Shown here piece after piece: positions 40,221-45,174 of a stretch of DNA of 54,643 nt. How positions within the stretch are numbered: the stretch's first letter is position 1; each line of letters begins with the position of its first letter. The translations under genes and the position numbers were made by a program. The notes under the pieces are model-generated. The model saw only the letters and a program-made list of their open reading frames with translations. It was not told where the DNA came from and did not search any database. Source of the stretch: Desulfuromonas sp. (lineage in GTDB: Bacteria; Desulfobacterota; Desulfuromonadia; Desulfuromonadales; Geopsychrobacteraceae); assembly GCA_002869665.1 (NCBI GenBank), contig PKUG01000183.1, forward strand, positions 1 to 54,643, given 5' to 3'.

Positions 40221-40267
40221 TACAAGCGTGGATGGTTACCTGACCCCACCCGGCAATCAATCGCCAT

Positions 40268-40374
40268 CGGAATCGGAATCGGAATCGGAATCGGAATCGG
40301 AATCGGAATCGGAATCGGAATCGGAATCGGTGAAAATGAATATCGCGCGGAGGCGCAGAGACGCAGAGAAAAAC
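40268..40374. repeat. Composite repeat: (CGGAAT) x10 microsatellite + GCGCAGAG module
   Basis: Ten perfect CGGAAT units span 40268-40327 plus a partial unit. CGCGCGGAGGCGCAGAGACGCAGAGAAAAAC follows at 40344-40374. Confidence 0.95.
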
Positions 40375-41508: not shown

Positions 41509-42198
41509 TCAGATTGGATTCTTCAGATACCGGTAATAACTGTCGTACTGGTAAATCGCCGCCAGCGGGTTGTGCGCCAACAGGCGGTCTTTCGAGGCCA
41601 ACACGGTGTTGAAGGCTTTGGCGTAGCGCAGGAACAGGGCGTCGTGGCCGACGCACAGGCCGAACAGCACGTTCATGTCCGATTCATGATGGTTGGCGGT
41701 CAGCGCCTGCAGGATCGGGTTGCACATCGCCTCGAAATTCTCCGGGTCGATCTGCTGTTCGCGCAGCAGGCCGATCTCCTCCTTCGAAATCGCCCCCGCC
41801 TTGCACATCACCGAAATCGTCTCGAAACCGTTGGTGCGGAATATCTGGTGGATGATCTCCGCTTCCTTGCGCATACCGATACAGAAGATCAGGCAGATGC
41901 GTTTGAACTTCATCTTCTGGGCAAACTCAATCGTCTCCTGAATCCGCGGCTTGATCGGGCGGATATTGGCGTACCCCTTGTCGCGATCGCCATAACCCTC
42001 CCCCTCCTGGATCGAGGCCTGACGGACCGCCTCCATCACCTGCGGGTCCTTGAGAATTTCCAGGGTTTCCTTGATGATCTCCGGGCTGCGCGTCGACGGG
42101 CAATTACCCGGCGCTTTCCCCTCTTCCTGGCGGCAGATCCGCTCGGGAACTTCCACCGGGCAGATCGCACAAGTGGGGATCGGTGTTTTCTTGCTCAT
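41509..42198 (-). CDS. DUF1847-family Cys-rich metal-binding protein
   Basis: The N-terminal CAICP....C......GNCPS cysteine pattern is followed by a CoA/cluster-like alpha/beta body (ICLIFCIGMRKEA.., GLCVGHD). The assignment is from memory of the family. Confidence 0.55.
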   Translation of the reverse strand: MSKKTPIPTCAICPVEVPERICRQEEGKAPGNCPSTRSPEIIKETLEILKDPQVMEAVRQASIQEGEGYGDRDKGYANIRPIKPRIQETIEFAQKMKFKRICLIFCIGMRKEAEIIHQIFRTNGFETISVMCKAGAISKEEIGLLREQQIDPENFEAMCNPILQALTANHHESDMNVLFGLCVGHDALFLRYAKAFNTVLASKDRLLAHNPLAAIYQYDSYYRYLKNPI

Positions 42199-42440: not shown

Positions 42441-43307
42441 TCATTCCCCAACACCTTCGGCGCTGCGGATCATTTCAAACAACTGCCCGGCGTGCAGATC
42501 GCGGGCCTGGCGGTAGATTCCCCCCAATTCTCCGGCCAGCCGTTTGAGGTTTTTGTTCCCCAGGGCCGTCGAGGCGCTGTCGACGATCAGTGTCTTCAGC
42601 CCGTCCCGGCGCAGCCCGGCGGCGAGGGTGGAAAGTTCATCGAGGACGTTGGCGCCGGGGACCAGCGGCACATTGGCCTCGCCGTCGGACACCAGCACCA
42701 GCAACGGTTCGAGGCGTGGTTCCTTCTGCCGCGCCACGCGGATCAGCTGGCTGGCCTTGACCAGGCCGTCGGCCAGCGGCGTCGCCCCGCCAACGGGGAG
42801 CTGGCGCAAACTCTGGCGCGCCGACAGCACGCTCGATGTCGGCTGCAGCAGCACCTCGGCCCGTTCGCCGCGGAACGCCACCAGGGCGACCAGGTCGCGG
42901 TTCTGATAAGCCGAGATCAGCCAGCCGAGGATCGCCCCCTTGGCCGCCTTCATCCGCTCGAACGCCCCCTGCCCCATCGACTCGGAGGCATCGACGACGA
43001 AGACGATCAGCGCTTTCTGGCGTTGCTGAAAGATCTTGCGTCGCAGGTCACCGCGCTGCAACTGGGTCAGGGATGTGAGCCCGCCGCGGCGCAGCAGACC
43101 GGCTTTCAGAGTGGCGTTGAAATCGAGACGGAAGGCCTCGGTCGTCGCGGAGAGCGGGGTGCTGCGCAGATGACGGCCGCTGCGGGCCTGAACGGTTTTC
43201 TCCGCCGAGCGCCCGGGCTGGCGGCGGGTGGCGCGGCCCCCCTCAAGGGCGAGCGGAGCGAGGCAGAGGTCGTCCGCTATGTTGATGAGCCGCTCAGGGC
43301 TTTTTTT
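42441..43307 (-). CDS. VWA (ChlD/BchD-type C-terminal) coding segment without its own start. It continues the upstream ChlI-like ORF after a -1 shift at an A9 run.
   Basis: The frame is open from 43307, and the only start codon is a TTG at 43061. The MIDAS motif reads ALIVFVVDASESMG, preceded by LDFNATLKAG, which is typical of the ChlD linker/VWA junction. Confidence 0.75.
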   Translation of the reverse strand, partial: KKSPERLINIADDLCLAPLALEGGRATRRQPGRSAEKTVQARSGRHLRSTPLSATTEAFRLDFNATLKAGLLRRGGLTSLTQLQRGDLRRKIFQQRQKALIVFVVDASESMGQGAFERMKAAKGAILGWLISAYQNRDLVALVAFRGERAEVLLQPTSSVLSARQSLRQLPVGGATPLADGLVKASQLIRVARQKEPRLEPLLVLVSDGEANVPLVPGANVLDELSTLAAGLRRDGLKTLIVDSASTALGNKNLKRLAGELGGIYRQARDLHAGQLFEMIRSAEGVGE

Positions 43308-44449
43308 TTAAAGGTCTCGAAGAGCATGCTCCCGGCCGCGGCCGCGCCGGGGAACTCGAAATCGTCATCCCAGTCGTCAAACTCGTCAACCAGCATCTCG
43401 CCGGCCGGCTCGCTGCCATCATCCTGGCGCTTTTCCAGCGCCGTCTTGAGCGTCTTTTCGACATCGGCAGCGGCCATGAACAGCCCTCCCGGCAAACGGT
43501 GCGGCAACACGAACCAGGCCGCCTCGGCGATCTCCGCCGCCCCGACCCGCTCTTTCTCCAGCAGCGCGGCCATGGCCCGGGCCACCTTCAACAGGGTGAT
43601 GTCGGCGCGATGCCCTTGAACTTTCAGATCGAGAGCCAGCTTGACAACCATATCGAGAGCTTCGGCGGGAATCTCGATCGACTCCAGCGCCTGTTGCGCC
43701 GCCCGGATGCGGCGGGCGAGCAGGGCGTCCTCGGCAGCCCAGCGCGCGACGAACCCTTGCGGATCGCGCTCGTAAGCGAAGCGGTTTTCCAGCAGCGCCC
43801 GGCGCTGGGCGACCTCCCCCAGGCCATCGACCGACACCGACAGACCGAAGCGGTCGAGGAATTGCGGCCGCAGCTCCCCCTCTTCCGGATTCATGGTGCC
43901 GATCAGCATAAAACGCGCCGGGTGAATGACGCACAACCCCTCGCGCTCGACGCGGTTGACACCCGAAGCGGCGGCATCGAGGAGCAGGTCGACCAGGTGA
44001 TCTTCGAGCAGGTTGACCTCGTCGACATAGAGGATGCCGCGGTTGGCCGCCGCCAGCAGCCCCGGCTCGAAGCTGCGCTCACCACTCTTCAGCGTCTGTT
44101 CCAGATGCAGGCTGCCGACCACGCGGTCTTCCGTCGCCCCCAGCGGCAGTTCAACCATCGGTGTCGGAATCTTCGTCGTCGCCAGCGCCTCCCCCTTGCT
44201 GAAGCGCGCGTAGCAACCGTCGTGCATCTGCTCCGGTTTTTCCGGCGGACAGTGATAAGCACAACCGGCGACCACCTCGATCTCCGGCAGCAACGCCGCC
44301 AGGGCCCGAACCGCCGTCGACTTCGCCGTCCCCTTCTGACCGCGGATCAGCACCCCGCCGATCCCCGGATCGACGGCGTTCAGCAGCAGCGCGGTCTTCA
44401 TCGCGTCCTGGCCGACAATGGCACTGAAAGGGAAATGGGTTGTTTTCAT
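43277..44449 (-). CDS. Magnesium-chelatase-type AAA+ ATPase (ChlI/BchI family)
   Basis: FPFSAIVGQDAMKTALLL is present. Walker A reads RGQKGTAKST and Walker B reads ILYVDEVNLL. MLIGTMNPEEGELRPQFLDRFG is also present. The ORF ends 8 codons after an A9 run. Confidence 0.9.
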   Translation of the reverse strand: MKTTHFPFSAIVGQDAMKTALLLNAVDPGIGGVLIRGQKGTAKSTAVRALAALLPEIEVVAGCAYHCPPEKPEQMHDGCYARFSKGEALATTKIPTPMVELPLGATEDRVVGSLHLEQTLKSGERSFEPGLLAAANRGILYVDEVNLLEDHLVDLLLDAAASGVNRVEREGLCVIHPARFMLIGTMNPEEGELRPQFLDRFGLSVSVDGLGEVAQRRALLENRFAYERDPQGFVARWAAEDALLARRIRAAQQALESIEIPAEALDMVVKLALDLKVQGHRADITLLKVARAMAALLEKERVGAAEIAEAAWFVLPHRLPGGLFMAAADVEKTLKTALEKRQDDGSEPAGEMLVDEFDDWDDDFEFPGAAAAGSMLFETFKKKALSGSST

Positions 44450-44591: not shown

Positions 44592-45089
44592 ATGACAACA
44601 CCCGCCCGCCAGTGGATCACCCCCATCACCCTGGGAACCTTTATCGTCAGCGCCGTGACCGGCGGCCTGCTGCTGTTTCATGTCAAGATCGGCTTCATCT
44701 CCTGGTCGCATGAATGGCTGAGCCTGGCCTTTGTCGCCGGCGTCATTATCCACTGCCTGATCAATTTCAAGCCGCTCAAGAACTTCGTCACCCGCCCGAA
44801 AGGAGCCGTCATCGTCGCCACTTTTGTGTTGCTGACCGTCTTTTCAACCCTGCCGCTGGTTGAAAACGGCGACCACGGCGATAGTCATTCACCGACCGGA
44901 AAGATGTTCACCGCCATGGGCAACCTCCCCCTCGCAACCGTTGCCGAAGCGACCGGACACACCCAAAACGAAGTCGTCGCCATCCTCACCGCCAACAATA
45001 TTGTTATCACCGGCGAGACCCAAACCCTCGCCGAACTCGCCGGTCAGAACCACACCCGCCCGGCAGAACTGGTCAAACTGATTCTTTGA
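44592..45089 (+). CDS. DUF4405-type membrane protein with one copy of the soluble C-terminal module
   Basis: ..WSHEWLSLAFVAGVIIHCLINF.. is followed by LATVAEATGHTQNEVVAILTANNI...TLAELAG. It is a paralog of 20570-21397. The start is at MTTPARQW. Confidence 0.6.
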   Translation: MTTPARQWITPITLGTFIVSAVTGGLLLFHVKIGFISWSHEWLSLAFVAGVIIHCLINFKPLKNFVTRPKGAVIVATFVLLTVFSTLPLVENGDHGDSHSPTGKMFTAMGNLPLATVAEATGHTQNEVVAILTANNIVITGETQTLAELAGQNHTRPAELVKLIL

Positions 45090-45137
45090 TGTCGCCGTGA
45101 ACAATGAAACGGCCCTCCAGACAAGAGAGCCCAGTAG

Positions 45138-45170
45138 AAACGGCCCATCCGAAAAAGATGGGCCGTTTAA
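45138..45170 (+). terminator. Rho-independent-like hairpin at the left edge of the AT-rich segment
   Basis: AAACGGCCCATC CGAAAAA GATGGGCCGTTT. Confidence 0.65.
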
Positions 45171-45174
45171 CATT

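Follow-up and report, generated by a model that had tools for sequence, protein, structure and literature searches.

A conserved nine-adenine run links ChlI-like ATPase and start-less VWA frames in a probable frameshifted chlD gene of Desulfuromonas

In a contig of Desulfuromonas sp. (assembly GCA_002869665.1, contig PKUG01000183.1; the 54,643-nt, or 54.6-kb, stretch analysed here is called the window), an open reading frame (ORF) for a ChlI/BchI-like AAA+ ATPase runs into nine uninterrupted adenines (A9), past which the sequence of a ChlD-type VWA domain continues in the −1 frame. The two frames very probably constitute one gene, a 'frameshifted chlD' (fs-chlD) gene of the Mg/Co-chelatase ID family, that is decoded in two ways at the A9 run. 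Standard decoding of the run would give a 390-residue ChlI-like AAA+ ATPase, the presumptive small subunit, and a programmed shift at the run would give a 669-residue protein that extends the same ATPase by a linker and a VWA domain bearing a metal-ion-dependent adhesion site (MIDAS), that is, a ChlD-like medium subunit. The short and long products, with their N terminus in common, presumably co-assemble into a two-tier AAA+ motor of the class I chelatase type, and the frequency of slippage may set the small-to-medium ratio, by analogy with BchI/BchD and dnaX. Recoding of chelatase (chlD) genes has already been published and tested, from 2013 to 2022; the window gene is an additional member of this family, possibly from a newly noted clade.

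The features of the locus, all on the minus strand, are collected in Table 1. The zero-frame product carries, in order, a Walker A motif, a Walker B motif, an acidic linker, three lysines and a seven-residue tail; its C terminus reads LFETF-KKK-ALSGSST-stop, with KKK encoded by the uninterrupted A9. The −1 frame opens at the run and reads KKSPERLINIADDL...LDFNATLKAG...ALIVFVVDASESMG. Open from 43307 to 42441, it can be read as KKSPERLINIADDLCLAPL ... ALIVFVVDASESMG ..., and the ChlD-type linker within it is SPERLINIADDLCLAPL.... Because a TAA stop of the −1 frame overlaps the start of the run, the shift is confined to the run itself. The overlap in which a shift can join both frames is 31 nt long (43307 to 43277) and contains the A9. 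Adding one A to the run yields the 669-residue fused product; computed for each run length, the window gene would encode 384 residues with A8, 390 with A9, 669 with A10 and 385 with A11. These results bear out an earlier description of the locus made from the sequence alone (hereafter the original prediction), which had placed the A9 at this site, had the zero frame ending shortly past it and had estimated a fused ChlI–ChlD protein of about 670 residues.

Table 1 Coordinates of the features of the fs-chlD locus in the window
Feature	Position	Strand	Basis
ORF1, zero-frame product, 390 aa, ChlI/BchI-like AAA+ ATPase	44449..43277	−	ORF; Pfam, TIGR02030 and PDB matches
A9 slippery run, recoding site; zero-frame codons AAA AAA AAA, preceded by TTT	43301-43309	− (T9 on plus)	
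−1 frame TAA stop, overlapping the first two A's of the run	43310-43308	−	
Zero-frame stop TAG, 7 codons past the run, ending the short product	43277..43279	−	
−1 frame segment, 288 codons plus stop: ChlD-type linker, VWA/integrin-I domain	42441..43307	−	
DUF1847 gene, 229 aa, Cys-rich N terminus, directly downstream of the fs-chlD gene	41509..42198	−	

The VWA frame has no start of its own, as the original prediction had also claimed. Its first 82 codons contain no ATG, GTG or TTG, and the earliest start codon, a TTG at 43061, lies 23 codons before the DASES motif and is not preceded by a Shine–Dalgarno-like sequence. Together with protein conservation that begins at the run, these observations led us to reject independent initiation of the VWA ORF. 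The chelatase-type gene has a G+C content of 66% and contains no A or T run longer than five other than the A9, which is also the sole homopolymer of at least nine in the window. We rejected this count as a signal by itself, given that such runs are expected by chance in the window: the expectation was 0.70, and 42 of 100 shuffled sequences contained at least one. Because the count alone is at chance level, the significance of the A9 rests on its position and conservation.

The fused product has the architecture of a class I chelatase medium subunit, in which a linker joins an AAA+ module to a MIDAS-bearing VWA domain. Its Pfam matches are, in order, Mg_chelatase, AAA_5, AAA_lid_2 and VWA_2/VWA, and its motifs are all intact (Walker A GQKGTAKS at residue 37, Walker B ILYVDE at 139 and the DxSxS-type MIDAS motif DASES at 487). 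Among PDB structures, BchI (1G8P, E=1e-92) and ChlI (6L8D) match the N-terminal part, and the integrin-I (VWA) domain of BchD (2X31_A, E=1e-20) matches the C-terminal part. The 641-position model TIGR02442, 'putative cobaltochelatase', aligns end to end over residues 6–646 at 670.5 bits, below its cut-off of 779.45; the fused product scores 413.9 bits with TIGR02031 (BchD-ChlD), below the cut-off of 499.55, and the N-terminal part scores 409.9 bits with TIGR02030 (BchI-ChlI), below the cut-off of 466.95. The window gene is related to these three families and is an equivalog of none. Its domain architecture and motifs match those of BchI/BchD (ChlI/ChlD) and CobS/CobT. In the canonical systems, the small subunit is homologous to the N terminus of the medium subunit and the two are encoded by separate genes, whereas in the window a single gene would supply both; the long form's AAA+ module, with its Walker motifs intact, does not differ from the short form. 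The sub-cut-off NCBIfam scores and the lack of a large subunit in the window further distinguish it from BchI/BchD and CobS/CobT.

The run and the two-frame layout are widely conserved. A scan of one genome per species yielded 70 related loci. In 31 of the 70 the frame of the VWA part is −1 to that of the ChlI-like part, and in 25 of these 31 the overlap itself holds a run of A9 (12 loci) or A10 (13 loci); the sources include an isolate genome (Malonomonas rubra DSM 5091, L003), Illumina metagenome-assembled genomes (MAGs) and long-read MAGs. Run-bearing −1 loci come from Desulfuromonadales, Desulfofustis/Desulfocapsaceae (Desulfobulbales), Omnitrophota, KSB1, Marispirochaeta (Spirochaetes), Fibrobacter and Anaerolineae, and conservation of the run with the two-frame layout extends over at least six phyla or orders. 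The Desulfuromonadales loci L001–L004, which include the isolate, read TTT or CTT followed by AAA AAA AAA, as in the window, and the same TTTAAA/CTTAAA arrangement recurs in L020. In tblastn comparisons with relatives, C-terminal matches start with the first residue past the run, where the N-terminal match ends, which indicates that constraint at the protein level acts on the −1 frame from the run on; this frame is 43–59% identical to orthologs from its first codon and has no stop through 288 codons. Of the best 120 protein clusters, 33 are at ≥60% identity, and 30 of these 33 are short forms of 371–411 residues that come from NCBI, JGI, ENA and Logan assemblies; all 30 end just past KKK. Because short forms dominate clusters from several sources, we regard the split form as the normal state of the clade rather than an assembly quirk.

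The run is retained even in genes that are read through in a single frame. The two closest fused proteins, P0001 (65% identity) and P0003 (61%; SPAdes-style contig), carry A10 at the identical site (L071:9409-9418 and L072:11150-11159, respectively), with the same flanking codons as in the window. Fused Desulfobacterales genes have A10 (L006 and L008) or A13 (L012), so the run is conserved whatever the frame configuration; distant fused chlD-type genes of Spirosoma, Mycobacterium and Marinobacter have no run. The original prediction had held that fused orthologs devoid of an A run would count against a programmed event, and that the closest ones keep A10 favours the programmed reading. Between close Desulfuromonadales relatives, run length toggles between A9 (split) and A10 (single-frame) with flanks unchanged, which suggests that the default product flipped in evolution without loss of the run. 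For each of the eleven loci in which we computed the products of every run-length register, a single register gives a protein of 657–685 residues and both others stop 4–29 codons past the run.

Four junctions merit separate description. One Desulfocapsaceae long-read MAG carries two paralogs on two contigs, one with A10 in the −1 arrangement (L015:7154-7163) and one with A9 that is apparently in frame (L017:7159-7167). Their junctions are nearly identical, and the difference in the run is either real paralog divergence or a homopolymer/indel error; the in-frame call for L017 may depend on another indel upstream of the run. In L018 (L018:7142-7151), from a Nanopore-type MAG, A10 is accompanied by a VWA part in the +1 frame, and the G that follows the run in its relatives L014 and L016 is missing. 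This is probably a sequencing indel; if real, slippage by −1 A or +2 A would be required. Finally, the run of a Desulfofustis MAG (L013:7157-7166) is interrupted (AAATAAAAAA) yet the −1 layout is kept, and the site may be decaying or may reflect a base-call error.

As to how the shift is made, slippage by RNA polymerase is the most likely mechanism, judging from the comparison of junctions. The polymerase would reiterate on the T9 template and so produce a fraction of A10 mRNAs, with −1 ribosomal slippage on A_AAA_AAA as a possible contributor; an A10 mRNA and a −1 ribosomal slip specify the identical protein, ...FKKKSPERL.... We favour the polymerase because, where a run marks the junction, its length is never below nine, because no downstream stimulator is conserved and because in-frame relatives keep the run together with stops in both other registers. 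Runs of this length (≥9) are those on which bacterial RNA polymerase slips efficiently (PMC5009743), whereas seven suffice for ribosomal shifting. In Thermus thermophilus dnaX, tau and gamma are made by RNA-polymerase slippage on a 9-base A/T run (PMC5009743, PMC3711429). The window gene resembles it in combining a homopolymer of at least nine, here exactly nine, with close stops in both non-productive registers, and in its predicted short and long products, which would share an N-terminal AAA+ module, serve one complex and be made in a ratio governed by slippage frequency. The two differ in protein family and in polarity: the long product is the default in Thermus and slippage yields the short one, whereas the A9 of the window makes the short product the default. 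Polarity of the Thermus kind is seen in the A10 relatives L071 and L072.

Shifting by the ribosome, with tRNA-Lys in the P and A sites slipping back on A_AAA_AAA in an unedited A9 mRNA, would give the same products, and we consider it a real but distinctly less probable option. Published accounts class the chelatase case as −1 ribosomal frameshifting on A_AAA_AAR (PMC5009743, PMC9227772), an in-phase A_AAA_AAA heptamer lies inside the run, and the same family has sites elsewhere that are ribosomal only. One of these is our control locus from Azotobacter (L060), with only A_AAA_AAG and a strong hairpin 6 nt downstream (z −2.1); the others are two Negativicoccus loci (L024:1085-1112 and L026:7005-7032) in which the overlap has no A run and contains an in-phase T_TTA_AAC (zero frame GTT TTA AAC). 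Set against these points, the junction runs in the clade are always at least nine rather than seven, in-frame relatives keep A10–A13 with near stops in both alternative registers, which is the signature of transcriptional slippage in Thermus dnaX, and a conserved downstream stimulator is lacking. The Negativicoccus T_TTA_AAC is a classical −1 ribosomal slippery site, and the VWA match at these two loci lies about 1.2 kb further downstream than at the other loci.

The case against a stimulator comes from folding the RNA. Across an alignment of ten orthologs covering the run and 100 nt past it, the run was the only invariant block and the number of conserved downstream base pairs was zero, and the window's own downstream fold was no better than those of shuffled sequences (z −1.19 and −0.83). 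With nothing conserved in either the single folds or the ten-ortholog consensus, we rejected a downstream RNA stimulator as a component of this clade's signal. A hairpin has been reported for Pseudomonas-type chelatase genes (PMC5009743), where it follows the A_AAA_AAR site; the window site has none. A stimulatory downstream structure is described as 'usual' for fs-chlD (PMC9227772), and the window gene lacks this feature, which is usual and not defining. The chelatase family appears to use lineage-specific signals, that of the window type being a long bare homopolymer. In reporter assays in Escherichia coli, Mg-chelatase cassettes shifted with efficiencies of 63% for A11, 40% for A9 and 10% for A7 (PMC3711429), and this growth with run length is compatible with either mechanism.

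Several points weigh against the interpretation given so far. The sequence fits both mechanisms, as any run of at least nine holds an in-phase A_AAA_AAA, and the published reporter assays likewise fail to separate RNA-polymerase from ribosomal slippage. Some long-run loci do fold downstream of the run (for example L007, z = −2.8). The length of nine is that of the assembled sequence, and two close relatives have A10 at the site. 'Chelatase' is to be read as a family assignment, with scores below threshold and no CobN or ChlH seen in the window or near the gene in the closest relatives. The polymerase mechanism, the subunit ratio, the partner and the metal are what we infer, and the efficiencies quoted come from the literature on other members of the family.

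Besides programmed frameshifting or dnaX-like transcriptional slippage, the original prediction had offered a homopolymer assembly error and a phase-variable or decaying gene as explanations. The conserved run and layout, the conservation of the −1 frame, the predominance of short forms and published work on the family support programmed recoding over the other two. Should the true genome have A10, the locus would be a plain fused ChlD-type gene and its split an error of assembly or sequencing. The A10 of the two closest fused relatives fits this explanation, as does the unreliability of homopolymer length in some related long-read MAGs, L018 with its +1 arrangement being an example. We nevertheless think it improbable, because the 30 short forms are independent cluster representatives split at KKK and because the split A9 form is also found in the isolate Malonomonas rubra and in several Illumina-style assemblies. 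Moreover, even with A10 in the genome, the conserved run and the near stops would still be expected to yield both products, and only the default would change. The remaining idea, a DNA-level switch that turns the VWA part on and off by replication slippage, or else a decaying pseudogene, is very unlikely: homopolymers this long are mutable, close species alternate between A9 and A10 and the interrupted run of L013 retains the −1 arrangement, but the −1 frame is open, conserved from its first codon and intact in its MIDAS, the arrangement persists across phyla, and a cytoplasmic metabolic ATPase is not a typical surface or restriction–modification gene (PMC3711429, discussion).

In its layout the window gene agrees with fs-chlD as published: past a ChlI-like ORF comes a VWA ORF in the −1 frame that lacks a start, with a poly-A site at the junction, small and medium subunits are attributed to one gene, and A9 is among the lengths tested. 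A 2020 study by Antonov (MBE 37:2268) reportedly traced both cobaltochelatase subunits, small and medium, to a single chlD gene. The dnaX-like control of the subunit ratio envisaged in the original prediction is thus the explanation already in print. The published hosts are Pseudomonas, Burkholderia, Delftia, Herpetosiphon, Methanococcales, Spirochaeta thermophila, Brevefilum and Anaerolineae, whereas the window belongs to Desulfuromonadales. Antonov et al. (2013) had grouped −1 frameshifted genes of Pseudomonas, Burkholderia, Delftia, Herpetosiphon, Methanocaldococcus and Methanococcus into a 'magnesium chelatase' cluster (PMC3711429), and the review by Atkins et al. (2016) has a section on them headed 'Magnesium chelatase: also regulatory?' (PMC5009743). 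Kuznetsov et al. (2022), with a database of 1,207 genomes, reported fs-chlD in anaerobes without any large subunit, termed this genotype 'stage 1' and called its function unknown (PMC9227772); one supplement of that paper makes no mention of Desulfuromonadales, Fibrobacter or Malonomonas.

The window gene, which has no CobN or ChlH gene nearby, resembles this stage 1 genotype. As the original prediction had stated, the window holds no such large subunit: none of its ORFs exceeds 538 residues, hence no gene of CobN or ChlH size is present. In the closest (Desulfuromonadales) relatives, no CobN or ChlH gene was found within 6–10 kb. All-against-all clustering of the ORFs around 36 loci revealed CobN close to neither the Desulfuromonadales nor the Desulfobulbales genes, and we accordingly rejected a conserved large-subunit neighbour. 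Two long ORFs were also rejected as large subunits, a 927-residue ORF after the L004 gene being a PAS histidine kinase and an 887-residue ORF in L017 a malic enzyme/PTA fusion. Only in the Fibrobacter relatives does CobN (PF02514, 1300 bits) lie directly upstream of an fs-chlD gene, which bears A10; this layout matches the published genotype of cobN with fs-chlD (PMC9227772).

The gene directly downstream in the window encodes a DUF1847 protein, and a DUF1847 gene also follows the chelatase-type gene in L001 and L071 (L071:11889-12578), the two closest relatives with flanking sequence; it is possibly co-transcribed with fs-chlD. One could imagine that, in Desulfuromonadales and other strict anaerobes, fs-chlD forms a self-contained two-product AAA+/VWA motor outside the CobN/ChlH chelatase, with its ratio set by RNA-polymerase slippage, a different client possibly linked to the DUF1847 metal-cluster protein, and A9/A10 toggling as a tolerated flip of polarity. 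We hold this extension of the model, which would match the stage 1 genotype of Kuznetsov et al. (2022), to be speculative and rather doubtful.

The two ORFs should be annotated jointly as one recoded gene; a call of 'ATP-binding protein' plus truncated 'VWA domain-containing protein', or of a pseudogene, is to be avoided. This holds equally for dozens of genomes of Desulfuromonadales, Desulfobulbales, Fibrobacter, Omnitrophota and Anaerolineae. A well-populated anaerobic clade is added to the known recoding family. Retention of the run in split and in-frame genes alike, with stops near in both other registers, lends comparative support to a slippage design. The locus also bears on the role of ChlI/ChlD-type motors that have no CobN/ChlH partner, a question already raised in the literature.

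Around the relatives of the gene, two neighbourhoods contain further genes that may relate to metals. In L071, a LarA-like gene and a DUF169 gene lie beside DUF1847, a possible tie to a metal-cofactor pathway. In L072, a heavy-metal P-type ATPase (HMA and E1-E2 ATPase domains; L072:12092-14254) lies directly downstream of the chlD-type gene, a second hint of metal handling. Within the window itself, a low-G+C island (40–48%, compared with 63–69% in its flanks) occupies positions 45000–47000, just upstream of the chelatase gene. It contains a gene with a T5orf172/MUG113 domain (45439..45906, minus strand) and ORFs without Pfam matches, and looks horizontally acquired. On the other side, the intergenic region between the genes for a pyridine-nucleotide disulphide oxidoreductase and a ferredoxin-domain protein contains a perfect hexanucleotide tandem repeat, (ATCGGA) × 10.8, at 40266–40330, which accounts for spurious ORFs of the SDSDSD, ESESES and FRFRFR type.

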